This document shows, piece after piece, positions 1,173 to 17,227 of a stretch of 20,000 nt of DNA. Within the stretch, counting starts at the first letter, position 1. The number at the start of each line of letters is the position of its first letter. Where the stretch lies: the IMG/VR virus record IMGVR_UViG_3300031758_000011, positions 106,524-126,523 of that record. The stretch is one strand, 5' to 3'. Below the pieces are notes generated by a model. That model ran no database searches. It was given only the letters and a program-made list of their open reading frames with translations, and was not told the origin of the DNA. The DNA is from an uncultured virus (IMG/VR IMGVR_UViG_3300031758_000011) (taxonomy: Duplodnaviria > Heunggongvirae > Uroviricota > Caudoviricetes). Both the position numbers and the translations under genes were made by a program.

Positions 1173-1204
1173 CTTGACAAATAGAAAAAAAGTTTGTACA
1201 TTTG
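1173..1204 (+). promoter_or_regulatory. Bacteroidota-type primary-sigma promoter (-33/-7) driving the leader peptide and tRNA operon
   Basis: CTTG(1173-1176)-N20-TACATTTG(1197-1204); the same spacing recurs at six other sites in the window. Confidence 0.75.
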
Positions 1205-1252
1205 TAGTATAAATTTAAACTTTTTAGAAAAAACGATATATTTAATATAAAA

Positions 1253-1348
1253 ATGAGAACAATTAACATACATATGATTTCGATTAATAATTGGAGACGC
1301 AATAGTTTCCATAACGGTCAAGGTATGTTAAATAACATCATAGAATAG
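1253..1348 (+). CDS. putative attenuator leader peptide MRTINIHMISINNWRRNSFHNGQGMLNNIIE (31 aa)
   Basis: ATG 1253 to TAG 1346-1348, followed by TAA; A-rich upstream; lies between a promoter and a terminator; codons match the anticodons of the downstream tRNA array. Confidence 0.8.
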   Translation: MRTINIHMISINNWRRNSFHNGQGMLNNIIE

Positions 1349-1387
1349 TAAAACATTTTATGAAGTAATCAACAAAAAGCCTTGACC
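1316..1387 (+). promoter_or_regulatory. antiterminator pairing of the attenuator
   Basis: GGTCAAGGT (1316-1324) pairs with GCCTTGACC (1379-1387), 8 WC + 1 GU, sequestering the terminator 5' arm and part of its loop. Confidence 0.75.
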
Positions 1388-1406
1388 ACAAATCAAGGCT
1401 TTTTTT
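1374..1406 (+). terminator. intrinsic terminator (attenuator)
   Basis: AAAAAGCCTTGA-CCACAAA-TCAAGGC followed by T7. Confidence 0.9.
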
Positions 1407-1418
1407 ATGCTTATAACT

Positions 1419-1610
1419 ATGGAAGAATTAGTAAGACCACTCGGAAAAGTAAAAGTAAAAAAGTTTAACGAAAACTTTGATGAAATAGTTGACGAGTATA
1501 AAGAAAAAGCAAAACAAATGGGTTACAACGGTGACCTAAGATTTAAAAAAGAAAACGGTAACATAATAATATTTGTTACAATAGACGGTGGCGTTAGCTC
1601 AGTTGGTTAG
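1419..1610 (+). CDS. small hypothetical protein, first gene after the attenuator
   Basis: Likely start ATG 1419 (MEELVRPLG...); the 3' end runs into the orphan tRNA-His 5' half. Confidence 0.55.
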   Translation: MEELVRPLGKVKVKKFNENFDEIVDEYKEKAKQMGYNGDLRFKKENGNIIIFVTIDGGVSSVG

Positions 1611-1621
1611 AGTGCTAGATT
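1587..1621 (+). pseudogene. orphan 5' half of tRNA-His, broken at the anticodon loop
   Basis: G(-1)-GTGGCGT-TA-GCTC-AGTTGGTTA-GAGT-G-CTAGA-TT, then unrelated sequence; closely resembles the 5' half of bacterial tRNA-His; no matching 3' half seen in the window. Confidence 0.8.
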
Positions 1622-1678
1622 TTTAAAGTGATATTTACTTTTTGAACTATTATTCTATATTTATATAAAAACATAAAT

Positions 1679-2257
1679 ATGGAAAAAATAGAATTAGAAA
1701 AACTTCTTAAAGAAGGTTTATCTTTAAGACAAATAAGTAAAAAAACTAATAAATCATTAACGACTATAAGATATTGGGCAGATAAATATGGTCTTAAACC
1801 TAAAAAATATTATCATAAATGGAGTTTTGAAGAATTAAAACCTTTAATAGAATCTTCAAATTCTAAAGCTGAAGTGTTAGAAAAAATGGGTTTAACACTA
1901 AAAGCTGGTAATTATAGAACGTTAAAAAGGTATTTTGATTTATATGGAATAGATAATGATTTATATAAAGGTAACCCTAGAAGAAACGTTACTAAGGTAA
2001 AATATAGTGATTCTGAAATATTTTGTGAAAATTCACAATATAATTCTGGTCATTTAAAGAATAGAGTGTTAAGAAGTAATTTATTAGAGTATAAATGTGT
2101 AAGTTGTGGTAATACTGGTGAATGGATGGGTGGTAAACTAATATTACAAATAGACCATATTAACGGTATAAATAATGATAATAGAATAGAAAATTTACGT
2201 TTTTTATGTCCTAATTGTCATTCACAAACTGAAACATACGCTGGTAAGAATAAATAA
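1679..2257 (+). CDS. HNH homing endonuclease with N-terminal HTH
   Basis: HTH (GLSLRQISKKTNKSLTTIRYW); CxxC...LQIDHINGINNDNRIENLRFLCPNCH. Confidence 0.92.
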   Translation: MEKIELEKLLKEGLSLRQISKKTNKSLTTIRYWADKYGLKPKKYYHKWSFEELKPLIESSNSKAEVLEKMGLTLKAGNYRTLKRYFDLYGIDNDLYKGNPRRNVTKVKYSDSEIFCENSQYNSGHLKNRVLRSNLLEYKCVSCGNTGEWMGGKLILQIDHINGINNDNRIENLRFLCPNCHSQTETYAGKNK

Positions 2258-2259
2258 AT

Positions 2260-2332
2260 GGTGGTTATGGTGTAACGGTTAACATGATAGATTGTGATTC
2301 TATTGATACCAGTTCGATTCTGGTTAATCACC
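2260..2332 (+). tRNA. tRNA-His(GTG) with encoded G-1
   Basis: GTGGTTA/TAATCAC acceptor; ATAGA-TTGTGAT-TCTAT anticodon arm; ACCAG-TTCGATT-CTGGT T arm; C73. Confidence 0.93.
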
Positions 2333-2342
2333 CTTGAACTGT

Positions 2343-2360
2343 AAGTTCTTTGACATGTTG
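2343..2360 (+). promoter_or_regulatory. boxA-like (rrn-type Nus antitermination) element
   Basis: AAGTTCTTTGACATGTTG resembles rrn boxA (E. coli GCTCTTTAACA; GTTCTTTGA form in other phyla); located in a tRNA spacer. Confidence 0.6.
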
Positions 2361-2372
2361 GTAAATTAATAC

Positions 2373-2443
2373 ACAAGTATAGTTCAGTGGTAGAATAGCG
2401 GTCTCCAAAACCGTTGACGGGAGTTCGAGTCTCTCTACTTGTG
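2373..2443 (+). tRNA. tRNA-Trp(CCA)
   Basis: ACAAGTA/TACTTGT acceptor; GCGGT-CTCCAAA-ACCGT; GGGAG-TTCGAGT-CTCTC. Confidence 0.93.
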
Positions 2444-2475
2444 CAATTAACTGAATATTAGTTAATTATAAATAC

Positions 2476-2562
2476 GGAGAGGTAAGCAGAGTTGGCCTAA
2501 CTGCAACCGCCTTGAAAGCGGTAGGCCCTAGAGGTGTGTGGGTTCGAGTCCCACCCTCTCCG
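2476..2562 (+). tRNA. tRNA-Ser(TGA)
   Basis: GGAGAGG/CCTCTCC acceptor; ACCGC-CTTGAAA-GCGGT; long variable arm; G73. Confidence 0.93.
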
Positions 2563-2632
2563 CTAAAATTTAATTTTATGAAAAAAGAATTTGATATGTT
2601 GTAAGGTCTGCTATTCACAGACTCACAACATT

Positions 2633-2821
2633 ATGAGTAAAAACGTAAACAGAGCAAAACTGAACAAAGCACAAAATGGTAGACAATACCGAATCATGTT
2701 AATCAATGATTTCTACCCAATTTATTGGGATGAAGGTATTCGTTTCTATGGAAACAAAATGAGTTATCAAGTTAGAATGTATAAAACTTGGAAACACTAC
2801 CGAAAAACACAGTGGAAGTAA
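2633..2821 (+). CDS. small basic protein embedded in the tRNA array
   Basis: Likely start ATG 2633: MSKNVNRAK...YKTWKHYRKTQWK (62 aa); flanked by RNA hairpins. Confidence 0.6.
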   Translation: MSKNVNRAKLNKAQNGRQYRIMLINDFYPIYWDEGIRFYGNKMSYQVRMYKTWKHYRKTQWK

Positions 2822-2832
2822 TTCCACAATTT

Positions 2833-2904
2833 TGTCTAATGGTGAAATGGTTATCACGCTGCTCTGATACGGCAGTATTTCCAGTTCGAGTCTGGGTTAG
2901 ACAA
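2833..2904 (+). tRNA. tRNA-Ile(GAT)
   Basis: TGTCTAA/TTAGACA acceptor; CTGCT-CTGATAC-GGCAG; TCCAG-TTCGAGT-CTGGG; A73. Confidence 0.88.
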
Positions 2905-2910
2905 CAAGAT

Positions 2911-2987
2911 GCAGATGTATCCCCTCAAGCTTATATCTTGTAGAAAGGGTAGTTGGTCACATGTGAGTTCGAATCTCACCTTCTGTA
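2911..2987 (+). tRNA. atypical tRNA-like RNA, anticodon TAT (Ile), no canonical D arm
   Basis: GCAGATG/CTTCTGT acceptor (1 mismatch); GTGAG-TTCGAAT-CTCAC T arm; CAAG-CTTATAT-CTTG anticodon arm; extra CCCT/AGGG helix; D-loop-like AGTTGGT lies 3' of the anticodon arm. Confidence 0.65.
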
Positions 2988-2997
2988 CAAAATATAT

Positions 2998-3071
2998 TCT
3001 CCTTTAGCTCAGTAGGTTAGAGCAACGCACTGTTAATGCGTGGGTCCTAGGTTCGAATCCTAGAGGGAGAG
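2998..3071 (+). tRNA. tRNA-Asn(GTT)
   Basis: TCTCCTT/AGGGAGA acceptor; ACGCA-CTGTTAA-TGCGT; CTAGG-TTCGAAT-CCTAG; G73. Confidence 0.95.
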
Positions 3072-3081
3072 CAACAAATAT

Positions 3082-3183
3082 TCACCCATAGCTCAGTGGT
3101 AGAGCAAACGGCTAGGTATGATAAGTAAGTTCATACAAGGAGTGTTAACCGTTAGGTCCTAGGTTCGAATCCTAGTGGGTGAG
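3082..3183 (+). tRNA. tRNA-Asn(GTT) with a 30-nt insertion (putative intron) in the anticodon loop
   Basis: TCACCCA/TGGGTGA acceptor, perfect D and T arms; AACGG-CT[3114-3143 insert]GTTAA-CCGTT. Confidence 0.85.
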
Positions 3184-3189
3184 CAAAAT

Positions 3190-3259
3190 GCCGACACTTA
3201 GTGGAAAAGGACCGTCCCTCATATGGATGGTTAAGTGAGTTCGAACCTCACAGTCGGTA
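3190..3259 (+). tRNA. compact atypical tRNA with CAT anticodon (Met or Ile2)
   Basis: GCCGAC/GTCGGT acceptor plus A-A mismatch; CTT-AGTGGAA-AAG D arm; extended CCGTCC-CTCATAT-GGATGG; GTGAG-TTCGAAC-CTCAC. Confidence 0.7.
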
Positions 3260-3265
3260 CAACAT

Positions 3266-3338
3266 GCACTTATCGTTCAACTGGATAGGACAATCGCCTA
3301 CGAAGCGATAAATCGGAGTTCGAATCTCTGTAGGTGTA
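3266..3338 (+). tRNA. tRNA-Arg(ACG)
   Basis: GCACTTA/TAGGTGT acceptor; ATCGC-CTACGAA-GCGAT; A20-containing D loop. Confidence 0.93.
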
Positions 3339-3347
3339 CAACAATCT

Positions 3348-3420
3348 GCCCCTATCGTTCAACTGGATAGGACATGGCCCTTCTAAGGCCAGTATCGGAG
3401 TTCGAATCTCTGTGGGGGTA
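3348..3420 (+). tRNA. tRNA-Arg(TCT)
   Basis: GCCCCTA/TGGGGGT acceptor; TGGCC-CTTCTAA-GGCCA; D and T arms identical to those of Arg(ACG). Confidence 0.93.
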
Positions 3421-3426
3421 CAAAAT

Positions 3427-3511
3427 GGAGAGTAATCCTTGATGGCGATAGGGTCCGACTGCTAATCGTGACGTACCTTTTTGGTATGAGGTTCGATTCC
3501 TCTGCTCTCCG
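3427..3511 (+). tRNA. tRNA-Ser(GCT) with an 8/4 acceptor/T fold and a bulged anticodon stem
   Basis: GGAGAGTA/TGCTCTCC (8 bp); GAGG-TTCGATT-CCTC (4 bp); TCCGA-CTGCTAA-TCG(T)GA; GTACC/GGTAT variable arm; G73. Confidence 0.8.
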
Positions 3512-3567
3512 CAAAATGTTATCTTTATTAGTATAGTTTTATATATTTATTAATGTAAAACTTAACT

Positions 3568-4503
3568 ATGAAAACAATACTATTTTTAATCCTATTTTTA
3601 CCAACATTGTTATTATCACAAACAACTTTGGTTGATGAAGATTTTTCTCCACCAACAACTTCTGGTTGGTCATCAACACCATCTGGGTGGATGTTAAACA
3701 ACTATGGTTCTGGTAATGCATTATCTGGCACATGGGCGTTAAGATTAACTAGTTGGTCAGCTAGTTCACCAAAATATGTTTATTTTCCAGTTACAGTACA
3801 ATCAAATAAAAATTATATTATAACATTTTGGACAAAAAGGGTTTGTAGTTTAACAGTTAACGTCAACGAAACAGCCAATCAAACAACATTAATTCAAAGT
3901 TATTCATCAACAAATCCAGATTGTTCGTCAAATTGGACAAATTGGTATCAATGGACTGATGTTTATTCATCAAACTATGATGGAACTGTATATTTTCAAA
4001 TATTGGTTAATTCAACTTACTTTTCGACTACTTTATATATTGAGGACGTTAAAATTGTTGAAATGGACCCAACGCCATTACCAATAGAATTGATATATTT
4101 TAAAGGTAAAAATGTTAACGACTATAATCTTTTATTTTGGTCAACAGCGACTGAAATAAATAATGATTATTTCACGATTGAAAAAAGTTATGATGGTTAT
4201 AATTTTCATGTTATTGACAATATTGAAGGTGCTGGCTATTCAACACATCAATTGTATTATGAGTATCATGATTATAATTTACAACCATTTATAACATACT
4301 ATCGTTTAAAACAAACTGATTACGATGGTAAAAAAGACGTTAGTGATATAATATCAATAGATAATAGAAATGATAAAGGTGATAAAGCAAAACTAGTCAA
4401 TATAATTAACATATTAGGGCAAACAGTTAACGCTGATTATAATGGATTAATAATTTACCGTTATAGTGATGGTAGCGTTATGAAAGTAAATAACCAACAT
4501 TAA
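3568..4503 (+). CDS. secreted Bacteroidota-like protein (signal peptide, beta-sandwich/CBM-like domain, T9SS-cargo-like C-terminus)
   Basis: Hydrophobic N-terminus; PLPIELIYFKG...WSTATEINNDYFTIEKS...YYRLKQTDYDG Ig-like module typical of T9SS cargo; C-terminal NILGQ...YSDG..KV. Confidence 0.7.
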   Translation: MKTILFLILFLPTLLLSQTTLVDEDFSPPTTSGWSSTPSGWMLNNYGSGNALSGTWALRLTSWSASSPKYVYFPVTVQSNKNYIITFWTKRVCSLTVNVNETANQTTLIQSYSSTNPDCSSNWTNWYQWTDVYSSNYDGTVYFQILVNSTYFSTTLYIEDVKIVEMDPTPLPIELIYFKGKNVNDYNLLFWSTATEINNDYFTIEKSYDGYNFHVIDNIEGAGYSTHQLYYEYHDYNLQPFITYYRLKQTDYDGKKDVSDIISIDNRNDKGDKAKLVNIINILGQTVNADYNGLIIYRYSDGSVMKVNNQH

Positions 4504-4522
4504 TAAGATATTTATCAATAAA

Positions 4523-4554
4523 TTTGGTTAATAAAAATTAATTCTGTACATTTG
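4523..4554 (+). promoter_or_regulatory. Bacteroidota-type promoter
   Basis: TTTG-N20-TACATTTG, 5 nt before ATG 4560 (possibly near-leaderless). Confidence 0.7.
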
Positions 4555-4559
4555 CCAAT

Positions 4560-5456
4560 ATGAAAAAAAATGTTTTAAATATCGAAATAACTAGACCATC
4601 ACAAAAATTGTTTGTGATGCGTGGTATTCCTGGGGCTGGAAAATCAACAATGGCGAAATCACTAATGGGTGAAGGGATAATTCATTCAACAGATGATTTA
4701 ATTGAAGCTACTGGTGACTACAGAGGTTTCTTTGCTAAAATGATAGAGTCTGGAGACTTTAAAGATTTGTCTAGAATGCACTCTAAGAACTTATCTAACG
4801 CAATCAAATCTATGAAAGATGGTATTAGTCCAGTTGTAATAGATAACACGAATATCAAAGCCAATGAGGCTAAAGCATATGTTGTTGCAGCGTTGGAAAT
4901 GGGATTTGATGATAACAACATACAAATACATGATGTTGGCACTCGTAACTTGACTGCTGAGCAATTAGCTGAGTCAAATACACATGGAGTTCCATTAGAT
5001 AAAATAAAAATGATGATGGATTCACATAAATCTGTTGGGCCATTGACTGTTAAAAAAATAGTTGAATCTAAAGATATGTATAAACAATCAGATGTGTTAT
5101 ATTCTTGTGTTTTGTTGGATGGACAATCCAAAGGTACGTTATTGGATAAACTTGGTATATGGATACCAAAAGATTGGACTGTGATAACACATCATATGAC
5201 AATAAATTTGGGTGAACTTAAAGATAAAACTGATTTAGGTAAAGAAGTTACATTGACAGTTGAAGCGTTAGGTCTTTCAGATAAAGCTATGGCTGTAAGA
5301 GTTAGCGGTTATCCATCAAAAAATGAAATTCCACATATAACTATTGCGATTAACCCAGATGGTGGTAAACCAGTTATGAGCAATCAAATAACAAAATGGC
5401 AAGACATTAAATCATTTATGATAAGTGGTATTGTCACTGAAATAAAAAAACAATGA
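4560..5456 (+). CDS. polynucleotide kinase-like P-loop domain fused to a 2H phosphoesterase (RNA end-healing enzyme)
   Basis: Walker A GIPGAGKST, HSTDD, VVIDNTN and THGVP motifs of AAA_33/N4BP2-like kinases; C-terminal HHMTI...PHITI 2H motifs. Confidence 0.85.
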   Translation: MKKNVLNIEITRPSQKLFVMRGIPGAGKSTMAKSLMGEGIIHSTDDLIEATGDYRGFFAKMIESGDFKDLSRMHSKNLSNAIKSMKDGISPVVIDNTNIKANEAKAYVVAALEMGFDDNNIQIHDVGTRNLTAEQLAESNTHGVPLDKIKMMMDSHKSVGPLTVKKIVESKDMYKQSDVLYSCVLLDGQSKGTLLDKLGIWIPKDWTVITHHMTINLGELKDKTDLGKEVTLTVEALGLSDKAMAVRVSGYPSKNEIPHITIAINPDGGKPVMSNQITKWQDIKSFMISGIVTEIKKQ

Positions 5457-5662
5457 GCGAAGTTAAATTAAATTTAAAAGGGTGGGGTTTTGTATATTCA
5501 GAAATTCTATGGATAGAAGGACCCCTTTACAAAATAAAATTTGTGCCAGAAGATAATTTATTGGCAGATATGAGAACTGAAGTATTTCACGTCAAAGAAA
5601 TATTAAACATAAATGATATTTTTATTGACAAAAATTTAAAGATAACAAAATATGAAGATTGA
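5453..5662 (+). CDS. hypothetical protein
   Basis: 69-aa ORF coupled to both neighbours (ATGA overlap upstream). Confidence 0.55.
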   Translation: MSEVKLNLKGWGFVYSEILWIEGPLYKIKFVPEDNLLADMRTEVFHVKEILNINDIFIDKNLKITKYED

Positions 5663-6299
5663 TAAGGATATTAAAGTTTCAGCACAAGTTGTGCTAATTA
5701 ATCCAGAAGGTTACATTTTAGGTGTTTCTAGAAAAGATGACCATAATGATTTCGGATTACCTGGAGGAAAAATGGACCCAGAAGACAATGGTGACCCTAA
5801 AACCACAGCGATACGTGAAACAAAAGAAGAAACTGGATTAGATGTCACTAATCTAAGACTTATTTTTGCTATCCATAAAGATGGGTTCATGGGTTTCACA
5901 TATCTAGCTGATTATTCTGGTAATATAGAACATAACGAACCACATGTTGTTAAATGGCAACCAATGGAAGTATTGGTTAATGGTAGATTTGGTAAATACA
6001 ACAAACTAGTATCGGAATCAATGAATGATATGGGTATTCAATACAAATATAACGTTGACGCTAAAGCAATCAAAGAAGATGTTTCTAGAGTTATTGATGA
6101 ATACTTTAAAGGTGAGTTAAAAGTTGAGTTTATTAGAAAATCATGGAATGATAATTCATACATTGTTTATTTTGTTGATGAAAAGGGCGAGTTGGAAGAA
6201 AGTTTTGGTTTTGACAAGAAGTTAGACGCTAGATTTGATGCGTTATCTAGGAAATATGGTGTTACTATCAGAATTGATTCAAGTTATTATTGCAAGTAA
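5652..6299 (+). CDS. Nudix hydrolase with a C-terminal extension
   Basis: Nudix box LPGGKMDPEDNGDPKTTAIRETKEETGL. Confidence 0.88.
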   Translation: MKIDKDIKVSAQVVLINPEGYILGVSRKDDHNDFGLPGGKMDPEDNGDPKTTAIRETKEETGLDVTNLRLIFAIHKDGFMGFTYLADYSGNIEHNEPHVVKWQPMEVLVNGRFGKYNKLVSESMNDMGIQYKYNVDAKAIKEDVSRVIDEYFKGELKVEFIRKSWNDNSYIVYFVDEKGELEESFGFDKKLDARFDALSRKYGVTIRIDSSYYCK

Positions 6300-6334
6300 T
6301 TGTTTTATTTAGTATATTAGTTAAAAATAGTTTT

Positions 6335-6688
6335 ATGAACAGAAAAGAAATCGACAGAAGATTGGATTTAAGTACCAAATTTATGAAAATGGGCCAATCT
6401 CTTATTACTGAAGGTAAAGAAGAAGGTGATATAGCTTTAGCTCAATTTGGTACAATTATGGTTTTTATGAGTGGTTTACTCATAGGTGGTGATGATGATA
6501 TATTTAAATTTTCTGACTTATGCTCAATGTTTTCATCAAAGAAGATATTAGACGCTATGCAAGATGAAAACCCTATTGCTGATTTATTTAACAATAAATT
6601 GGATGATAAAACTTATGATGAGTTTATCAAAAAAATAAATAGCCTAAGAGATAAAAACAATGGTAAAAACGATGATGAAATAAATTAA
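6335..6688 (+). CDS. hypothetical protein
   Basis: Likely start ATG 6335, after the promoter variant TTG-N20-TATATTAG (6290-6320). Confidence 0.6.
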   Translation: MNRKEIDRRLDLSTKFMKMGQSLITEGKEEGDIALAQFGTIMVFMSGLLIGGDDDIFKFSDLCSMFSSKKILDAMQDENPIADLFNNKLDDKTYDEFIKKINSLRDKNNGKNDDEIN

Positions 6689-6698
6689 TCATCGTTTT
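6666..6698 (+). terminator. possible terminator hairpin
   Basis: AAAACGATGAT/ATCATCGTTTT inverted repeat over the stop codon, followed by a T-rich run. Confidence 0.4.
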
Positions 6699-6699
6699 A

Positions 6700-6731
6700 T
6701 TTGTTTTATTAAAAATTTATACCTACATTTG
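6700..6731 (+). promoter_or_regulatory. Bacteroidota-type promoter
   Basis: TTTG-N20-TACATTTG. Confidence 0.75.
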
Positions 6732-6753
6732 TCTAACATTAAAAAATTAACGC

Positions 6754-7878
6754 ATGTTAGCTATACAAAAATATTTAAGAACACACGGTTTAGAAAAAAC
6801 AATCAAAGACTTTTCTTTAAAAACTAGAGAGTATGAACACAAAATACTCTTGAAGTATGACCAATTAGTGTCACCAACACTTATGTCATTGCCAGAGATG
6901 CAAGATTGTCGTGGAATCATCCTTGAAAAAGGTACTTGGAACGTAATGTCTTTGGCGTTTAGAAAATTCTTCAACTCTGAAGAAGGTAACGCTGCTAAAA
7001 TAGATTGGAATACTGCACAAGTACTTGAAAAATTGGATGGTACTATGATACAAGTGTATTATGATTGGCACGACATGACATGGTATGCTGGTACTACTGG
7101 TACTGCAAACGGTGAAGGTGAAGTTAACAACAAAAATGGTACTAAATTTAACGAATTGTTTTGGGATACTGTTAACAACAAATACACATTCAATGCATGT
7201 TTGTTAAATTATGATTATATCTATGTGTTTGAGTTAACTACACCATATAACATAGTAGTAAAACCACATGGTGAATCATCAGCGACTTTGTTGGCTGTTA
7301 GAAACAGAAAAACACTTGTTGAGTTGTCTGGGAGAGACTTGGAAATGACTGCGGTATCATTGGATATACCATTGGTAAAATCTTTTGATTTAAACGCAAA
7401 AAATGTTGGTCACTTGTTGAAAACATTTGAAGGTATGCCATGGTCTGAAGAAGGTTATGTTGTACGTGATGGTAATGACAATCGTGTTAAAGTGAAAAAT
7501 CCAGCATATGTTGCGGTACACCACTTGAAAGGTAAAACTGCTGAACACAACATATTAACTATTGTAAAAACTAACGAGATAGAAGAATTTGCTGCTACTT
7601 TCCCAGAAAGAACAGAAGAATTAAATCGTCTTAAAGAGTCTTACGATGCGTTGGTTGCAAAATTGAATGTTGTATGGGATGAATTAAAGTTGCGTAAACC
7701 AAAAAACGTAACAAAACCAGAACAAAAAAAGTTTGCTGCTGCTGTGTTTGAAGTTTGTGAGAAATATGATTTAAAAAACTTTACTGGGTTGTATTTTGGG
7801 TTGAAAGATTACAAAATAGCATCAGTTGAAGAATATATGTTTAACTATGACGATAAAACGTTATATAAAATGTTGTAA
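6754..7878 (+). CDS. T4 Rnl1-like RNA ligase
   Basis: DCRGIIL, FRKFFN, motif I EKLDGT, VFELT, EEGYV, VKVKNPAY. Confidence 0.9.
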   Translation: MLAIQKYLRTHGLEKTIKDFSLKTREYEHKILLKYDQLVSPTLMSLPEMQDCRGIILEKGTWNVMSLAFRKFFNSEEGNAAKIDWNTAQVLEKLDGTMIQVYYDWHDMTWYAGTTGTANGEGEVNNKNGTKFNELFWDTVNNKYTFNACLLNYDYIYVFELTTPYNIVVKPHGESSATLLAVRNRKTLVELSGRDLEMTAVSLDIPLVKSFDLNAKNVGHLLKTFEGMPWSEEGYVVRDGNDNRVKVKNPAYVAVHHLKGKTAEHNILTIVKTNEIEEFAATFPERTEELNRLKESYDALVAKLNVVWDELKLRKPKNVTKPEQKKFAAAVFEVCEKYDLKNFTGLYFGLKDYKIASVEEYMFNYDDKTLYKML

Positions 7879-7942
7879 TATGTTAATTGATGGAGGACCA
7901 GAAGGGTTTCAATGGTTTAGAAGTGAAACAAAAAAAGAAAAA

Positions 7943-8191
7943 ATGGAAAATAACGAAATAACAGCGGATTGGGCTAGAAAAACAGCCCAATCTATTTTAG
8001 GTGAAAAAGTGCGAAAAGAAGTTGATGTTTGCTTAAATGGGGTTAAAAAAGCTGTAGAACAGAATAAATTAAGCACTACTATTGCTATATATGTTGATGA
8101 TTTAACCAAAAAAGAGTTAGAAAACAGAGGTTTTATAGTAAACAAATATAGCGACCAACGTGATGGTAGTTATACAACAATATCTTGGTAA
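7943..8191 (+). CDS. hypothetical protein (alternative start 7880)
   Basis: ORF with an A-rich leader before ATG 7943. Confidence 0.6.
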   Translation: MENNEITADWARKTAQSILGEKVRKEVDVCLNGVKKAVEQNKLSTTIAIYVDDLTKKELENRGFIVNKYSDQRDGSYTTISW

Positions 8192-8192
8192 T

Positions 8193-8417
8193 ATGACTAG
8201 AGAGTTTTACACAGAATTAGCTGAACTAATTAAGAAACATAAGATGACATTAGTTACTGGCACACATCAAGGTTTAGAATCATTTACTAAATCATTTGAA
8301 GGTCGAATGTTCTTTGTTACTGATGGGACGAAGAGTCATCATTTACAAGGTGGTGAAAGTATGTTGCATGAAGCATCAACTATTATTAAATTAGAAAAAA
8401 ATAGATATCGTGGATAG
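8193..8417 (+). CDS. hypothetical protein
   Basis: ATG 1 nt after the upstream stop codon. Confidence 0.55.
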   Translation: MTREFYTELAELIKKHKMTLVTGTHQGLESFTKSFEGRMFFVTDGTKSHHLQGGESMLHEASTIIKLEKNRYRG

Positions 8418-8634
8418 AGAAGCGTTAAAGAAAGAAGTGATGGGTAAGGTTGTTAAAAAATCTTACCCAGAACTAGAAAAAGGTGGTCAACATTGTGGTG
8501 TGCCAAGAGGTGTCAGTTTGTATTGTGAAGAATTTGATATTGAAATCAGAATGCAAGCTCATAGGTCTCAATATAGAAATTTAGAATTGGCAGCAACACT
8601 TATGGAGTTGGCTATCGATGAATTAATAAAATAA
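8410..8634 (+). CDS. minimal class-I release-factor GGQ domain protein
   Basis: GGQH...VSL...IEIRMQAHRSQYRNLELA matches the RF domain 3 pattern GGQHVN...CQxxRSQxxNxxxA. Confidence 0.7.
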   Translation: MDREALKKEVMGKVVKKSYPELEKGGQHCGVPRGVSLYCEEFDIEIRMQAHRSQYRNLELAATLMELAIDELIK

Positions 8635-8637
8635 AAT

Positions 8638-8922
8638 ATGAAAGAAATATTAGCAAATCCGTATTTATCAGCATTTGTTGTGTTGATTAGTCAAATCATT
8701 TTCATTTATTTGAGAACAATAAATGTTATTTATACTGCTGAACGTAAAATGGTTCCAGCAATCATAAGTGGTAATGGGATTGGGTTAGCATGGTTAGTAT
8801 CGATATCTATCGGTGGTAATTCAATAATGCATGGTGAGTTCTTACCAATATTAGCATTTTTAATTGGTGGTACGTTAGGTACTTATTGGGGTATTAAAAA
8901 AGAAATGAATAAACATGAGTAA
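8638..8922 (+). CDS. small membrane protein (about 3 TM helices, DUF5698/UPF0316-like)
   Basis: Hydrophobic segments; IYLRTINV and GGTLGTYWG motifs. Confidence 0.55.
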   Translation: MKEILANPYLSAFVVLISQIIFIYLRTINVIYTAERKMVPAIISGNGIGLAWLVSISIGGNSIMHGEFLPILAFLIGGTLGTYWGIKKEMNKHE

Positions 8923-9097
8923 AGATAGTATACAAAATGATTCTCGTATTGAAGAGGAAAACAAACCTAAAGTTTATACAGAAAGGGATGTTATCGAATT
9001 ATTAATAGCTTGTAAAGATAGATTTGGTGGTTCAGAGTTATATGACTACACTAGCGATTCTGAAGTTATTGAATGGTTTAATCGAATTAAAAAATAA
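8915..9097 (+). CDS. hypothetical protein
   Basis: 60-aa coupled ORF. Confidence 0.5.
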   Translation: MSKDSIQNDSRIEEENKPKVYTERDVIELLIACKDRFGGSELYDYTSDSEVIEWFNRIKK

Positions 9098-9099
9098 AC

Positions 9100-9465
9100 A
9101 TGAGTAGAGAAGAATTTGAACAATATCTTATTTCCATTGGTGGTGTTTATAATTGGAAAGGTGCTAACCTTACCAACCCATCTATGTTTGGTGTTGGTGA
9201 AGGTTGGTTTCAGTTGTTAAAGAACCTCATAGACGAACTTTTATCGTTAGGTTGGGATAGAACTATGATTCAATCAAAAGAGAAGTTTGGTGGGCTTAAT
9301 TTCTACGTAAAAGACCCAACACCAGAGATGCATGACATAATATTAACATATGAAAAGTTATCATATGAAATATGTGAAGTTTGTGGTGACCATGGCTATC
9401 CTAGAAAGTTGGATTGGATAAAAAGTTTGTGTGATAAACATGCTGCTGAAAAAGGAATTGATTAA
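9100..9465 (+). CDS. conserved hypothetical protein with a putative Zn-binding site
   Basis: GEGW...KEKFGGLNFY...CEVCG...LCDKH. Confidence 0.65.
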   Translation: MSREEFEQYLISIGGVYNWKGANLTNPSMFGVGEGWFQLLKNLIDELLSLGWDRTMIQSKEKFGGLNFYVKDPTPEMHDIILTYEKLSYEICEVCGDHGYPRKLDWIKSLCDKHAAEKGID

Positions 9466-9480
9466 AAATTTTAAATTAGA

Positions 9481-9512
9481 TTTGGTGGATTCAATTTAAA
9501 TTCGTACATTTG
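9481..9512 (+). promoter_or_regulatory. Bacteroidota-type promoter
   Basis: TTTG-N20-TACATTTG. Confidence 0.75.
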
Positions 9513-9531
9513 TAAAACAAAAGAAAAAAAT

Positions 9532-10926
9532 ATGACTATTAAACAGATTTTTGACGAGATTGCATCAACTAGTGGTAACAACGCTAAGATTGAAATCCTT
9601 AAAAAATACTCAGACAATGAGTTATTGAGAAGAGTGTTATATATGGCTAACTCTAAACGAGTTAAGTTTTATATTAAACGTGTACCAGAATACACTCACA
9701 ACCAAGTTGATTGGACGTTAGAACAAGCGTTGGGTATGTTGATGCAAATCGCAAACCGTGACTTCACTGGTCAACTAGCTATTGATAAACTAACTATTTG
9801 GTTAGAAAACGTATCAGCTGACGATGCTTACATTATTGAACGTATTATCGATAAAGATTGTAAGATTGGTATGGGTACAACTTTTATCAATAAAGTTTTC
9901 AAAGACTTAATCGAAGATACGCCATATATGGGTGCTGTATCATTTGACGAAAAGAAAGCACGTAAAATTTTTGAGAAAGGTGGAAGAGGTTATTCACAAG
10001 TTAAAATGGATGGTCGTTATTGTAACGCAGTTATTCGTAATGGTGAAGTTGAACTAGAAAGCCGACAAGGTGAAGCAACTATTCTTACTGGTGCTAAATT
10101 TCTTTCAGAACTAAGTAATTTTGAAGATTGTGTGTTAAATGGTGAATTAACAATGGATGGGATTCCACGTTATGAATCTAACGGTATTATTGCATCATTG
10201 ATTGATATTTGTGGTAAGAAAGAAAGTCGTTCTGAAAAAGAAAATGAAAAGAAAATTGCTGCTTTTGAAGAAAAACACGGTGAATTACAAGAAGCGTTAG
10301 ATAAAATTCGTTACACAGTTTGGGATACTATATCAATTGATGAATATTTCGAGAAAGGTTCTAAAACACCATATAATGAAAGACTTGAATTTGCTGCTAG
10401 TTATGTATCTGTGGCTAATGCAACAATGATTTCAGTTGTTGAATCAGTAATTGTTGAAACATATGAAGATGCGATTAAACACTTCCAAGAAATATTAGGT
10501 AGAGGTGAAGAAGGTACTATTCTTAAAGCATATGATGGTAGTTGGAAAGATGGTAAACCAACACATCAAATCAAAATGAAGTTGGAATTAACGTTGGATT
10601 TGGTTATCACTGGGTTTAACTATGGTACAAAAGGTACCAAAAACGAAAATGTAATCAGTTCATTCAATGCTGAGACATCATGTGGTAAATTAAAAACAAG
10701 ACCACAAGGGTTAACAGAGTCTTTGATGGCTGAAATTACAGAGAATCAAGACAATTTGTTAGGTACTATCATCGAAGTTAAGTGTTCTGGGTTATCTTTT
10801 GACCACACTGGTGCATACTCATTGTTATATCCAGCGTTTAAACACTTTAGAGATGACAAATCAGAGGCTAACTCACTTGACGAGTGTATAGAAATACAAA
10901 ATGCAGCAATAGGTTTAACAGTATAA
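9532..10926 (+). CDS. ATP-dependent DNA ligase (T4 gp30-like)
   Basis: Motif I KMDGRY, SRQG, LNGEL, VWD, GEEGTILK, IKMK; C-terminal OB fold ending SLLYPAF..FRDDK. Confidence 0.93.
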   Translation: MTIKQIFDEIASTSGNNAKIEILKKYSDNELLRRVLYMANSKRVKFYIKRVPEYTHNQVDWTLEQALGMLMQIANRDFTGQLAIDKLTIWLENVSADDAYIIERIIDKDCKIGMGTTFINKVFKDLIEDTPYMGAVSFDEKKARKIFEKGGRGYSQVKMDGRYCNAVIRNGEVELESRQGEATILTGAKFLSELSNFEDCVLNGELTMDGIPRYESNGIIASLIDICGKKESRSEKENEKKIAAFEEKHGELQEALDKIRYTVWDTISIDEYFEKGSKTPYNERLEFAASYVSVANATMISVVESVIVETYEDAIKHFQEILGRGEEGTILKAYDGSWKDGKPTHQIKMKLELTLDLVITGFNYGTKGTKNENVISSFNAETSCGKLKTRPQGLTESLMAEITENQDNLLGTIIEVKCSGLSFDHTGAYSLLYPAFKHFRDDKSEANSLDECIEIQNAAIGLTV

Positions 10927-10928
10927 GT

Positions 10929-11123
10929 ATGGTAGCAGTATTAGTAGTAGCATTGGGTATTTTATTGGTAGTAATAGCATTTGCCATATTATTTGTTGTT
11001 TATAAAGTAAATAAATTAAAAAATAGAGTAGAAGACACGGTAATTGATAGTGTAAAACAAGTAATTGTTGAACATGGTCCAGAAGCTGTAAAGTATGTTA
11101 AAAATAAAGTAGATAAAAAATGA
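10929..11123 (+). CDS. small single-pass membrane protein
   Basis: Long hydrophobic N-terminus from ATG 10929. Confidence 0.6.
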   Translation: MVAVLVVALGILLVVIAFAILFVVYKVNKLKNRVEDTVIDSVKQVIVEHGPEAVKYVKNKVDKK

Positions 11124-11578
11124 GAAAATTAGTATTATTAGTAATGTGTATGTGGGCGGTTAGCACTTTCGCACAAGATTCAACAAAATGTAATGTTGGA
11201 AAGTATGTATCATGGGGTGTTTCATTATCAAACAATTCAGATTTTAACACTGGTTCATATAGTTCATTAGAATTTGGTGTTGTGTGTAACGATGTAGCTT
11301 TTGGGTTAGCGTTAGGTAGAGGTAGTTTAGATGGTATTTTTAAGAATGATGATATTAGAAACTATTTCTATGAAGTTAAAGTAGCACCATCATTCCCTAT
11401 TGGTAAAGTATATGGTAATATCATATTGGGTGTCGGTAGTTACATTGATACTAAACATAATTTTATTGAATACGGATTAGGTGTATCATATACACATAAT
11501 AAGATAGGATATGGCGTGTCTTACACAAACTGGGATGGTGTCGATTACGTAACACCAAGTATTAGTTACAATTTTTAA
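11120..11578 (+). CDS. putative small outer-membrane beta-barrel protein
   Basis: Signal peptide (AVSTFA-Q); alternating Gly/aromatic beta strands; terminal SISYNF beta-signal. Confidence 0.6.
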   Translation: MRKLVLLVMCMWAVSTFAQDSTKCNVGKYVSWGVSLSNNSDFNTGSYSSLEFGVVCNDVAFGLALGRGSLDGIFKNDDIRNYFYEVKVAPSFPIGKVYGNIILGVGSYIDTKHNFIEYGLGVSYTHNKIGYGVSYTNWDGVDYVTPSISYNF

Positions 11579-11593
11579 AAAAAAAAGAATAAC

Positions 11594-11965
11594 ATGAATA
11601 AAAATAAACGATTAATCAAGTTCCCGTCTATTGAACAATTTAGAACAGTTGTTTCTAATGTCAACAGACATTTCAACTTTGTTGGTTTGGATGAAAATGG
11701 TGAGGCGATTTATGACCCAACATTACCAAAACCAACAATTACGTTCAAAGGTGCTATAAAATTACATGGTACCAATGCTGGTGTGTCTTTTAACGCACTA
11801 AGCGGTATGTGGGCTCAATCTCGTGAGAATATTATCACACCAGCACCTTCAAAATTAATAGAAATTGAGTTTGAAGATGGTTCAAAACAATTATTTGATG
11901 AAAATGCGATTATTAATGGTAAAGTAATTAATGATTATAAAATAGGTGAGATTATTGTTTTATAG
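11594..11965 (+). CDS. Rnl2-family RNA ligase, N-terminal fragment with a 40-aa appended tail
   Basis: KFPSIEQF, motif I KLHGTN, QSRENIITP; ligase-like sequence ends near 11842. Confidence 0.85.
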   Translation: MNKNKRLIKFPSIEQFRTVVSNVNRHFNFVGLDENGEAIYDPTLPKPTITFKGAIKLHGTNAGVSFNALSGMWAQSRENIITPAPSKLIEIEFEDGSKQLFDENAIINGKVINDYKIGEIIVL

Positions 11966-12782
11966 CATACCAATTTTTATATTTGTAAAAATCTTTATTG
12001 GTTAATATAGTAATAATTCGTTTATCAGTAATATTTTCATAAAGTTTGATGTTGTTTCTTTTTGAATTATATAATTCAGTATATGGTAATTTATGTTCCT
12101 TACAAAATTTTCTTAAATTTATTGTTACTACATAAATTAATTCATTGTTGTTGTTATATATGTGGATAATTTCAGCCTCTTTTTGGTAATTTGTTTTATC
12201 TTTTTTAGGTTGTTTTAATTTGTCTCTAGTAGACATTGTTTCACCATCTTTAATAACGTCCAAACGTTCTTTATATTTTTTAGCTGCTAATTGATGGATA
12301 TTTAACCCATCAGATGTGATAGTGTTTCTTTTTGTCTCATCACCTTTTCTAGCGGCTAAATTATATAGATTTTGACCATTATTGTTAATAGTTGTTTTCA
12401 TAGTATTAACTTTTTTTGTTATTGCATTTTTGCGTGATTCTGGGTTGTGTTTTTTACCAAGAAAACCGTAAATAAAACCAGTTGTTGTTACGTTTGATTT
12501 ATTATAAAATTTATCATTTTTAGCAACATTGAATTTAGCATGTAAATGCGACTCAAATAATAAAGCTTCATTTCTAGAATTAAAAACTCTAACTATAACA
12601 TATTTGTAATTGTGTGTATTTAATTTTTGGTCGTTAATAAATTCTTTGTCAGAGCTAGAACTAAAATAACTCACACCTAAATCATATTTAGGTTCTATTT
12701 TTGATGTTCTAGAACCATAGTAATGTTTTTTATTTAGTTTATTAGTAATTCTATAAACATAATGGTAATTTTGTTTTTTCAT
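11952..12782 (-). CDS. GIY-YIG (Seg-like) homing endonuclease
   Basis: YVYRITNKLNKKHYYGSR...YFSSS...EALLFE...FYN; the only convincing minus-strand gene; interrupts the Rnl2 gene. Confidence 0.88.
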   Translation of the reverse strand: MKKQNYHYVYRITNKLNKKHYYGSRTSKIEPKYDLGVSYFSSSSDKEFINDQKLNTHNYKYVIVRVFNSRNEALLFESHLHAKFNVAKNDKFYNKSNVTTTGFIYGFLGKKHNPESRKNAITKKVNTMKTTINNNGQNLYNLAARKGDETKRNTITSDGLNIHQLAAKKYKERLDVIKDGETMSTRDKLKQPKKDKTNYQKEAEIIHIYNNNNELIYVVTINLRKFCKEHKLPYTELYNSKRNNIKLYENITDKRIITILTNKDFYKYKNWYAIKQ

Positions 12783-12820
12783 AATGCTGGTTTATCGTTT
12801 TTTAATAAATATCTATAAAA

Positions 12821-12852
12821 TTTGGAAAAGTTAAAAAAATGTCGTACATTTG
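12821..12852 (+). promoter_or_regulatory. Bacteroidota-type promoter that re-drives the downstream Rnl2 half
   Basis: TTTG-N20-TACATTTG; divergent from a minus-strand TATTTATT at 12804-12811. Confidence 0.75.
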
Positions 12853-12865
12853 TAAAAAATAAAAA

Positions 12866-13126
12866 ATGGAAAAGTTAGTTTTTGATTATACATATTGTTC
12901 CGAACCAGAGTGTTGGGAGTGGAATATACCATTTGAATATGAATCTAAAGAGAAATTCATACTTGATGTTTTAGAGAATCCTATGATTTTAGATGAACTA
13001 GGTATAACATCCGTATATGTATGGCAAATAGTGGAAAAAACTATATTTGAAGAAGATTACGTCAAAAATGTAGATGAATACGTATTCACTTTAGATGAAT
13101 GGTTTGAAAAAAATAAAAAAATATAA
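12866..13126 (+). CDS. hypothetical acidic protein between the Rnl2 halves
   Basis: 86-aa ORF directly after the promoter. Confidence 0.6.
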   Translation: MEKLVFDYTYCSEPECWEWNIPFEYESKEKFILDVLENPMILDELGITSVYVWQIVEKTIFEEDYVKNVDEYVFTLDEWFEKNKKI

Positions 13127-13134
13127 ACATAAAA

Positions 13135-13971
13135 ATGGAAAAGAAAATAAAAAATATTAGAGAAATTAAAACATCTGATAACGCTGGATTTGCATTTTTT
13201 GTGCATTCACATAAAGAAATTTTTGAAGCTATGATTAATGCTGTGTTGTTAAACAATGGTTTAGACGGTGATAAAAATACTGTAACAATCTACGGTGAAT
13301 GGGCTGGTGGTAATATTCAAAAAGGTGTTGGTGTTTGCAATTTACCTAAATCTTTCTTTATCTTTGGTGTTAAAATCACACCACATACTGAAACTGAAGA
13401 AGAGTTAAAAGCTAATCCAGCATATTGGGTTGATTACTCTTATTTAAGAGCACCAGAGCAGAATATTTACAATATTGACGATTACCCTACATATTCAATC
13501 GATATTGATTTTAACATGCCACAATTGGTACAAAATCAGTTGTCTGAGTTGACTATCAAAGTTGAAGAAGAATGTCCAGTAGCAAAAGCTTTTGGTTACT
13601 CTGGAATTGGTGAAGGTATTGTATGGACTGCTGATTTTAAAGGTGTTGTTCATCGTTTCAAGGTAAAGGGCGAACGCCACTCTAGTTCTAAAGTAAAAAC
13701 ACTTGCAGCTGTTGATGTTGAGAAATTAAATTCTATTAAAGAATTTGTTGATTATGCAGTATCTGAAAGTCGTTTTAACCAAGCGTTAGAAAACATTTTC
13801 CCAAACAACGAACCTATTGATGTTAAGAAAATGGGTGACGTTATCAGATGGGTTGTTAATGACGTTATCAAAGAAGAAATGGATACAATGGTAGAGAACC
13901 AATTGGAACCAAAAGAAATAAATAAATACATTTCATCTAAAGTAAGAGAAATGTTCTTTAAAATGGCTTAA
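13135..13971 (+). CDS. Rnl2-family RNA ligase, C-terminal fragment with a 13-aa appended head
   Basis: DNAGF, IYGEWAG, FFIFGV, GEGIVW, FKVKG (motifs III-V); lacks motif I. Confidence 0.87.
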   Translation: MEKKIKNIREIKTSDNAGFAFFVHSHKEIFEAMINAVLLNNGLDGDKNTVTIYGEWAGGNIQKGVGVCNLPKSFFIFGVKITPHTETEEELKANPAYWVDYSYLRAPEQNIYNIDDYPTYSIDIDFNMPQLVQNQLSELTIKVEEECPVAKAFGYSGIGEGIVWTADFKGVVHRFKVKGERHSSSKVKTLAAVDVEKLNSIKEFVDYAVSESRFNQALENIFPNNEPIDVKKMGDVIRWVVNDVIKEEMDTMVENQLEPKEINKYISSKVREMFFKMA

Positions 13972-13972
13972 T

Positions 13973-14173
13973 ATGAACGGAACTGTTTATAGATTAAAAC
14001 AAGATGTAACTGTCGCTAAAGGTATGGACCTTAAAGCTGGACAAGAATTAGAAGTGGTAATGGGAGTTGTCTACATGGGTGGTTTCCCATTACCCTTCGA
14101 AATGCAACAATTATTTGTTAAATTCATTGATAACAACAAAAATTTGTTTGTAGATGATACTAGAACGTGGTAA
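13973..14173 (+). CDS. hypothetical protein
   Basis: 66-aa coupled ORF. Confidence 0.55.
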   Translation: MNGTVYRLKQDVTVAKGMDLKAGQELEVVMGVVYMGGFPLPFEMQQLFVKFIDNNKNLFVDDTRTW

Positions 14174-14645
14174 AAAGAAATGTGATTGTGGTAATGTAGC
14201 TGTATGGTTATACATGCCAGGTTATGCCAATAATGATAACCCATATATCTGTGATGATTGTATTGGTACACCAGATGATATTGGTTGTTCATGCAACTGG
14301 CATTATGGTTTACCACAAGAAGGATTACCAACAGATGAACCAGAAGGTATTGAAAGTAAAGATTGGCGATGGGTTGAATACGAAGGTGATGAATATACTG
14401 ATAAAATAACCAAAGAAGAAGATGGTTATTGGCAGTATATTGATGAACGTGGTAGACCATATCCATGTAATGAGTATGAATATGATGAAGATGGTTTCAC
14501 AGATTACACATGGTTGGGTGAAAAAGTTGCTAATTTAGATATGCGATTCTATTTTTTTAAAGAAAGAATAAAACGTAAGTTTAAAAATTGGTGGAAAAGA
14601 AATATTGCTGATTATATACCAAAACATTTGGAAGATAATTTTTAA
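14154..14645 (+). CDS. Cys-rich hypothetical protein
   Basis: CDCG..CDDC..CSC..PC; 163 aa. Confidence 0.6.
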   Translation: MILERGKKKCDCGNVAVWLYMPGYANNDNPYICDDCIGTPDDIGCSCNWHYGLPQEGLPTDEPEGIESKDWRWVEYEGDEYTDKITKEEDGYWQYIDERGRPYPCNEYEYDEDGFTDYTWLGEKVANLDMRFYFFKERIKRKFKNWWKRNIADYIPKHLEDNF

Positions 14646-14658
14646 ATTAGTAAATTTG
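14627..14658 (+). promoter_or_regulatory. Bacteroidota-type promoter
   Basis: TTTG-N20-TAAATTTG upstream of the PARP gene. Confidence 0.7.
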
Positions 14659-14674
14659 TATAAAATATTGAAGT

Positions 14675-17187: not shown

Positions 17188-17227
17188 AAACTATTGATTT
17201 TTCTCAAAATCTTCTTTATAATTAAAC

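Follow-up and report, generated by a model that had tools for sequence, protein, structure and literature searches.

Enterobacterial leader-peptide attenuators include those of trp, his, leu, thr and pheA, and the ilvGMEDA and thr leaders are multivalent. The pheST attenuator, a leader with Phe codons, belongs to the phenylalanyl-tRNA synthetase operon, and the T-box riboswitch binds uncharged tRNA directly and needs no open reading frame (ORF). The role of phage tRNAs is debated, either codon compensation or counter-defence being favored, and to our knowledge little has been established about the regulation of phage tRNA genes. In this study, an element that precedes an array of tRNA genes was analyzed in the final 20 kb of a phage-like contig of 126,523 bp and 29.9% G+C (positions 106,524–126,523 of IMG/VR record IMGVR_UViG_3300031758_000011; this whole stretch of 20,000 nucleotides is called the window). 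Two papers discuss the tRNAs of phages as a means of counter-defence (van den Berg et al., 2023, PMC10264068; Burman et al., 2024, PMC11464382), the proposal being that they stand in for host tRNAs which tRNA-targeting defences have removed. The text of PMC10264068 contains none of the terms attenuat-, leader, terminator or promoter, and no description of leader-peptide control of tRNA genes was found in the open full-text literature, outside which the subscription journals lie.

We are fairly confident, from comparison of sequences, that the element is a ribosome-mediated (leader-peptide) transcription attenuator gating the phage tRNA operon. An earlier note on the window had proposed an attenuator of the trp/his/ilv type with codons matching the downstream tRNAs, and the comparative evidence supports it; all the computational checks that the note had suggested came out in its favor. 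The reading is held because the leader ORF is conserved, the terminator and antiterminator covary, the leader codons match the array, the leaders of other arrays are retuned and no internal promoter of the family type was found. Four of the six defining features of a leader-peptide attenuator are present, namely a conserved ORF, cognate codons, a terminator and a covarying antiterminator. The leader probably turns the tRNA genes on when ribosomes lack the tRNAs in question. If so, tRNA genes would here for the first time be seen under the control of how their own codons are decoded, and a textbook mechanism would reach viruses as well as a kind of target that is new to it. New here are tRNA genes as the target, phages as the carrier, a sensor of such breadth and a family of re-tuned leaders.

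Like the enterobacterial attenuators, the element combines a short ORF rich in regulatory codons (codons 2–18, the sensor stretch) with mutually exclusive antiterminator and terminator pairings, a hairpin (here a candidate) linking the regulatory codons with the antiterminator strand (region 2), and multivalent amino-acid sensing. Unlike them, it is phage-borne and would regulate tRNA genes, not biosynthetic enzymes; its sensor spans seven amino acids and 9–10 codon families, mostly with one to a few codons each instead of long runs of a single codon. The phage leader has no sequence similarity to enterobacterial leaders, and its region 2 lies inside the ORF, in a place that a terminating ribosome would leave uncovered. 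The closest systems in logic are the multivalent ilv and thr leaders and the pheST leader. In pheST, as is proposed here, leader-peptide attenuation controls a component of decoding according to the decoding of its own codons, although its target is a synthetase, a single amino acid is sensed and the genome is cellular. The T-box shares with the phage element a terminator/antiterminator switch, the control of translation-related genes and, presumably, a response to tRNA charging; an Rfam scan of the window (E ≤ 1) returned no T-box or other cis-regulator, only tRNAs and weak chance matches. The array resembles the tRNA sets regarded as counter-defence in being phage-encoded, and here it is located beside tRNA repair genes.

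The 31-codon leader ORF was confirmed with the codons that the earlier note had listed. Codon matches were scored against an explicit set of 18 codons, generously drawn up, that the array tRNAs can read; the background use of these codons is 0.275 in 98 long ORFs. In the leader, 24 of the 31 codons belong to this set, and a recount of the first 21 gave 19, the figure claimed before; among 671 ORFs the leader alone reaches 19/21. It also ranks first of the 538 short ORFs (20–60 codons, six frames) of the 126.5-kb genome, the runner-up scoring 0.62. Within the sensor stretch 16 of 17 codons match, a count reached by none of 20,000 composition-preserving, stop-free nucleotide shuffles. The amino acids and codon families represented are His, Trp, Ser-UGA, Ser-GCU, Ile, Asn, Met/Ile-CAU, Arg-ACG and Arg-UCU, and the peptide is dominated by Asn (seven) and Ile (six), as had been stated. 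The claim that ten anticodons are covered stands for nine, which are supported by ARAGORN and Rfam (GTG, CCA, TGA, GAT, GTT, ACG and TCT at default settings; GCT and CAT at relaxed settings only). The tenth, Ile-ATA, rests on a non-canonical gene (2909–2990) that neither ARAGORN nor Rfam calls. This gene has a normal acceptor and T arm and a hairpin loop CTTATAT (with TAT), but no normal D arm, a D-loop-like AGTTGG being found in the variable region instead, and it is 96–100% identical in three related loci (L007, L026 and L047).

The unit is widely conserved. A search with the upstream protein gave 11 viral-contig loci, and the short ORF is kept in all ten distinct homologous regions from this search. 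A DNA pattern made from the invariant core then yielded 53 stretches on uncultured phage contigs, corresponding to 44 distinct units with 40 distinct leader ORFs. The ATG, frame and stop codon are kept in 43 of the 44 units, the remaining unit being cut by the contig end, so that the leader conservation that the earlier note had asked about is borne out. The leaders are mostly 29–33 codons long, the ATG is invariant in the 40 distinct leaders, indels come in threes and the third codon position is the most variable. Codons 1–18 of these leaders stay within the array set, barring ACA at codon 3 and a few AAA, AAG, ACT and ACA, and membership collapses from codon 19 on. Where positions vary, unlike residues are exchanged within the set (M/I/R at position 8, I/N/M/H at 9 and N/M/S/I at 13). 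The arrays behind these leaders vary remarkably little: in the 39 units with more than 3.5 kb downstream, the ARAGORN anticodons are GTG (34), TCT (33), GTT (33), ACG (32), CCA (30), GAT (28), TGA (26), CAT (25) and GCT (24), others being rare.

Because a sample drawn with a DNA pattern is biased, the protein family of ORF67, the first gene after the terminator, was searched in addition. This gave 68 loci, 51 of which have a leader by profile search, 13 of them outside the exact pattern; the diverged leaders of L080 and L103 were found by eye among the ORF67 loci. In these two the residue order is shuffled and the set is kept (15/17 codons in L080 and 14/17 in L103), and each has its own antiterminator match, GAGATG/CATCTC in L080 and GAAGTGGG/CCCACTTC in L103. 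Among 48 usable loci anchored on ORF67, 35 have leader and array, two the leader only, one the array only and ten neither, and the presence of the leader thus follows that of the array and not that of ORF67 (Fisher 1e-7, kinship being ignored). In the two loci with a leader and no array, the leader and ORF67 stand directly before HNH or kinase/CPD and Rnl1 genes; in relatives that have lost the array (L105), the same leader precedes the kinase/CPD and Rnl1 repair genes. In L086 (3841–3892) the leader has lost its 5' half and with it the ATG, and region 2, the terminator, ORF67 and a 16-tRNA array are kept; L086 is a natural variant whose switch cannot be translated. A pattern scan of the genome_contigs collection gave three matches, of which one, on a 20.6-kb contig of 31% GC, is a genuine unit; the other two were rejected as chance matches in DNA of 63–68% GC, and none of the three points to a host.

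The terminator at 1374–1406 was found as described, with a 12-pair stem and a T run, and the proposed antiterminator also held: GGTCAAGGT (1316–1324) and GCCTTGACC (1379–1387) form nine pairs, one of them G-U, with a duplex energy of −16.4 kcal/mol that 0 of 2000 shuffles of 1211–1373 reach. A hairpin and T run lie 3' of the leader ORF in 42/42 units with enough sequence. The covariation that the earlier note had suggested looking for is present in both structures. In an alignment of 40 sequences, 92% of the cells of the terminator stem are paired and all eight pairs show compensatory double-sided changes, and the antiterminator has double-sided changes in six of eight pairs, nine rows of one subgroup being one register off and scored as unpaired. 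Antiterminator covariation in this alignment is 0.291 against 0.166 in shuffled sequences (0/500 shuffles reach it), with the optimum at slide 0. The leader segment at nt 57–72 is complementary to the terminator 5' arm of its own locus while its sequence varies among lineages (GGTCAAGG/CCTTGACC, GAGTCGG/CCGACTC, GAATCGG/CCGATTC, GGGTCGG/CCGACCC, GAGACG/CGTCTC, GAATTCGG/CCGAATTC and GAAGTGGG/CCCACTTC). Duplexes between region 2 and the terminator arm of the same locus have −14.1 kcal/mol and cross-pairs −9.5 kcal/mol, a difference that none of 10,000 permutations reaches. The best terminator-pairing window starts at nt 57–63 from the ATG in 41 of 42 homologues. The sensor stretch ends with codon 18 (nt 54); the median start of region 2 is nt 61, approximately one ribosome front edge away.

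Three jumbo relatives (G002, G003 and G005) that carry the same leader, here called A, have 22–45 tRNA matches each and were used for a cross-array test. All seven further arrays examined have a promoter motif, a short ORF and a terminator. Array B carries Pro, Gln, Tyr, Thr, Gly and Lys tRNAs (leaders MTTTTTYQTQYQPKGGKP…, MKTQTTYQTQYQPKGGKP… and MKTTGMTYYQPKQTQGGKP…), array C carries Cys, Val and Leu tRNAs (leader MRNTFNILVLLSLCLLV…) and array D carries Phe, Glu, Asp and Ala tRNAs (leader MRTLTNIFDFAFFAAEEDY…). Codons 2–19 fall in the amino-acid set of their own array in 67/72 cases for A, 51/54 for B, 19/36 for C and 22/36 for D, the backgrounds being 0.29, 0.33, 0.15 and 0.23, and the leader-by-array matrix has 159 of 198 codons on its diagonal. 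Leaders C and D share with A a seven-residue N-terminal preface, beyond which 9/10 (C) and 11/11 (D) residues are in the set. Each of the 20 amino acids falls into one and only one of the four sensor sets (A: H, W, S, I, N, M, R; B: P, Q, Y, T, G, K; C: C, V, L; D: F, E, D, A), and an antiterminator pairing is found at the same relative place in B–D. Leader content thus co-varies with array content over four array types, which was a check suggested in the earlier note.

These comparisons bear on two other ways of working the same switch. TnaC and SpeFL represent families of arrest or sensor peptides, in which the amino-acid sequence matters; here a peptide (…SISNWRRNS…) rather than its codons would stall the ribosome on a small molecule or other signal and set the same terminator switch. 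The peptide core is strongly conserved in family A, the motif RNS is retained even in the shuffled leaders of L080 and L103, and Ser at position 12 is kept through both TCG and AGY codons, all of which a peptide signal would account for. However, leaders B, C and D of the same genomes have wholly different cores, each composed of the amino acids of its own array, the variable positions of A exchange unlike residues (M/I/R, I/N/M/H) within the codon set, and the residue order is shuffled in L080 and L103; we consider an arrest peptide unlikely. A sensor of the general pace of translation, or of transcription–translation coupling, in which the codon set would simply be the host-slow codons, seems slightly less probable still. 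The leader does use wobble-read or rare codons, such as TCG (0.20% of gene codons) and CGC (0.01%), as a pace sensor might, but such a sensor has no need of four leaders in one genome with four disjoint amino-acid sets matching their own arrays, and the phage-common codons AAA, GAA and TTA are excluded from leader A.

The promoter that the earlier note had placed at 1173–1204 is present and fits two motifs, the Bacteroidota type TTG-N20-TAcaTTTG at 1174–1204 and, at 1174–1202, the sigma-70 hexamers TTGACA-17-TACATT. Its cores TTG and GTA..TTTG are invariant in 11/11 aligned homologues. The family-type motif, scanned as TTG-N18-21-TAnnTTTG, has 27 copies on the + strand of the genome and about five in shuffles. 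In the window, copies lie just 5' of ORF starts at 1174, 4524, 6701, 9482, 12822, 14628 and 18262, with further copies at 11955 and 13335; they precede the genes for kinase/CPD (4524), the Rnl1-like ligase (6701), DNA ligase (9482) and the PARP-domain protein (14628) and an ORF at 12866 (12822). The stretch from 1205 to 4523 contains no copy, and the internal promoter that could have driven the tRNAs independently was thus not found in this form. A free-standing small RNA or small-protein gene, with a terminator that ends its own transcript and downstream genes expressed independently, would suit the strong terminator and a stable terminated leader RNA of ~195 nt, but it is very improbable, as a plain terminator would have no use for covariation of its 5' arm with codons 21–24, the unit occurs in association with tRNA arrays and no family-type promoter follows.

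Under the attenuator reading, transcription would start at the promoter at 1174–1204 and give a leader RNA of ~200 nt carrying the 31-codon ORF, in which codons 2–18 are nearly all read by the downstream tRNAs. The sensor codons would serve as the 5' strand in a long hairpin with imperfect pairing (1:2), whose 3' strand contains region 2. An undelayed ribosome would either cover region 2 or let it re-pair with strand 1 behind the ribosome, so that the terminator would form and transcription would end before ORF67 and the tRNA genes. Were an aminoacyl-tRNA scarce, the ribosome would stall within about codons 4–17 and hold strand 1; region 2, now free, would pair with 1379–1387 and the polymerase would continue into ORF67 and the array. 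The outcome would be supply-matched feedback, in which slow decoding of the codons of a tRNA block leads to its production. We infer translation of the leader ORF, ribosome stalling, the read-through that follows and the natural trigger from this arrangement. The trigger may be attack by an anticodon nuclease, or ordinary supply feedback or starvation, and the switch may behave as an OR gate. One RNA-library contig of 187 nt (X3, identical to X5) spans 1292–1455 across the terminator with no differences, DNA in the library being possible; matches came from eight runs, all at small shares, and the four examined were contigs.

The 1:2 protector hairpin is likely but unproven from the sequence. 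The pause hairpin TGGAGAC/GTTTCCA (1292–1298 with 1305–1311) of the earlier note does belong to the minimum-energy fold, which also includes TTAACATAC/GTATGTTAA, but it is better read as the tip of this longer 1:2 hairpin. Inspection of TGGAGACGCAATAG by eye for a conserved elemental pause motif found none. When the 3' arm of the terminator is withheld from folding, the 2:3 antiterminator forms instead. In 42/42 homologues the first 84 nt have an equivalent long hairpin as their minimum-energy fold, with a median of 10.5 of 12 region-2 bases paired with the sensor stretch; the median energy z is −2.0, and 21 of the 42 fall below −2. A median of 24 nt lie between the end of region 2 and the stop codon, and therefore a ribosome at the stop would not cover region 2; re-formation of the 1:2 hairpin behind the ribosome would then explain termination.

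In the three jumbo relatives, the four-way amino-acid partition suggests a designed division of labour among tRNA blocks. A modular codon-group monitor, in which each of four attenuators induces its own slow-read tRNA block and the trigger is possibly tRNA loss to anticodon nucleases, is put forward only tentatively; with such a trigger, the leaders would sense tRNA-targeting defence and induce replacement tRNAs in response. Each leader spells out the tRNAs that the phage takes to be limiting, and the leaders offer a direct handle on which signal acts: starvation, codon demand or cleavage of host tRNAs.

Several observations weigh against the attenuator reading or parts of it. The earlier note had the array directly behind the terminator, which is not the case in the window: ORF67, a tRNA-His 5' half and an HNH gene intervene. 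The first intact tRNA begins 850 nt past the terminator, with two ORFs in between, and a promoter of a different type could lie in the HNH gene. Covariation in the 1:2 hairpin is weak (7/500 shuffles reach it) and RNAalifold found no consensus structure in leader nt −8 to +84, for which reasons the off state is the least secure part. Since some of the invariant sensor codons also have a structural part to play, TGG pairing with a conserved CCA and GAC with GTC, their conservation is not purely a codon effect; in addition, the DNA pattern behind the main sample fixes codons 10–11 and 14–18 and biases it towards their conservation. ACA (Thr) stands at codon 3 in 28/40 leaders and the array has no Thr tRNA; this codon belongs to the N-terminal preface that leader A has in common with leaders C and D. 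The antiterminator pairings of B–D are individually weak, three of seven beating 95% of shuffles, and the permutation figures overstate independence because the sequences are related. The leaders of L080 and L103 match their own detected arrays only in part. Both lack AGA and an internal ATG in codons 2–18 and their detected arrays lack Arg-TCT and CAT tRNAs, and the L080 codons TCG, TGG, ATT and ATC have no detected partner tRNA. ARAGORN misses odd tRNAs, the His tRNA of L080 having been found by Rfam only and read by eye, and covariation of leader and array in these two loci is suggestive only.

Table 1. Features of the window, with positions counted from its first nucleotide.
Feature	Position	Strand	Remarks
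Promoter	1174–1204	+	Bacteroidota type, motif fit
Leader ORF	1253 (ATG)–1348 (TAG)	+	31 codons, MRTINIHMISINNWRRNSFHNGQGMLNNIIE
Sensor stretch	1256–1306	+	Codons 2–18
Candidate 1:2 protector hairpin	1263–1331	+	Pairing of sensor codons with region 2 and the flank 3' of it
Region 2 (antiterminator strand)	1316–1324	+	GGTCAAGGT, pairs with 1379–1387
Intrinsic terminator	1374–1406	+	Regions 3 and 4; stem 1374–1404, then T run
Terminator 5' arm	1379–1387	+	GCCTTGACC
ORF67	1407–1610	+	Small conserved protein, core ~56 amino acids; first gene after the proposed attenuator
Ancestral tRNA-His 5' half	1591–1625	+	Broken in the anticodon loop just before GTG
HNH homing endonuclease gene	1679–2257	+	phrog_10822, E 3.5e-47
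tRNA-His(GTG)	2261–2333	+	
tRNA-Trp(CCA)	2373–2444	+	
tRNA-Ser(TGA)	2476–2563	+	
ORF, 76 amino acids	Between tRNA-Ser(TGA) and tRNA-Ile(GAT)		Unannotated
tRNA-Ile(GAT)	2833–2905	+	
Non-canonical tRNA-like gene	2909–2990	+	
tRNA-Asn(GTT)	2998–3072	+	
tRNA-Asn-like gene	3082–3184	+	30-nt insert in anticodon loop; Rfam tRNA, 58 bits
CAT tRNA	3189–3260	+	
tRNA-Arg(ACG)	3266–3339	+	
tRNA-Arg(TCT)	3348–3421	+	
tRNA-Ser(GCT)	3427–3512	+	
Kinase fused to fungal-type tRNA-ligase CPD domain	4560–5456		tRNA-repair type
NUDIX protein gene	3' of array		Among repair-type genes
Rnl1-like ligase	6754–7878		Repair type
DNA ligase gene	3' of array		Among repair-type genes
Rnl2-like ligase	13135–13971		Repair type
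PARP catalytic domain protein	14675–15982		

ORF67 matches by tblastn directly after the terminator in 36/44 units, and elsewhere it also occurs with neither leader nor array. Members of the family are 63–67 amino acids long, and in the window the 3' end of the ORF runs into the tRNA-His remnant. The protein has no Pfam or PHROG match. An AlphaFold2 model (predicted local distance difference test score 81.6) has a predicted beta-alpha-beta-beta fold, for which a Foldseek search of the PDB gave no match at E ≤ 0.001. The tRNA-His half aligns with the intact tRNA-His of L007 and L009 and is identical to that of L007 up to the anticodon loop. The HNH gene is inserted exactly at the break in this loop, its C-terminal region matches HNH genes of unrelated phages, and a complete tRNA-His of different sequence starts 3 nt past its stop codon. 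The insertion resembles intron-less homing in which a replacement tRNA-His came along with the endonuclease gene. A search of GenBank phages gave matches only to HNH and tRNA pieces and no close relative in that collection; the HNH matches are to the C-terminus (window 2093–2258).

The tRNA-repair-type genes lie 3' of the array, within 4524–16695. Because an insert-bearing Asn-like gene occurs together with a phage kinase/CPD protein and an Rnl1-like ligase, protein-mediated splicing or healing of tRNA is conceivable; in ARAGORN intron mode, an insert-bearing Asn-like gene is also found in the array of L005. Long tRNA-like genes with large inserts (~106–116 nt, Rfam 39–48 bits) are present in L080 (1729–2194) and L103 (318–538), and ARAGORN reads some of them as tRNAs with a TTA anticodon ('stop' tRNAs). 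A long hairpin on the − strand at 17189–17256, between ORFs at 16708–17187 and 17228–17800, has weak Rfam matches to plant microRNA precursor models (33 bits; cutoff 71).

Outside the array, the genome carries a transfer-messenger RNA (tmRNA; Rfam 61 bits, cutoff 47 bits), a tRNA-Met and a tRNA with the anticodon CTA. Sites 1268–1630, 2562–3095 and 6638–6708 of the segment L139 (genome 96500–106523) hold, between them, the tmRNA, the CTA tRNA and a promoter-to-Met stretch. The latter, ~480 nt between another family-type promoter and tRNA-Met (genome 99092–99593), gave no family in an Rfam search, and the same spacing is found in the jumbo relatives L144 and L148. The CTA tRNA lies directly 3' of a family-type promoter in L139 and, with the TTA-anticodon readings, hints at stop-codon suppression in this group of phages.

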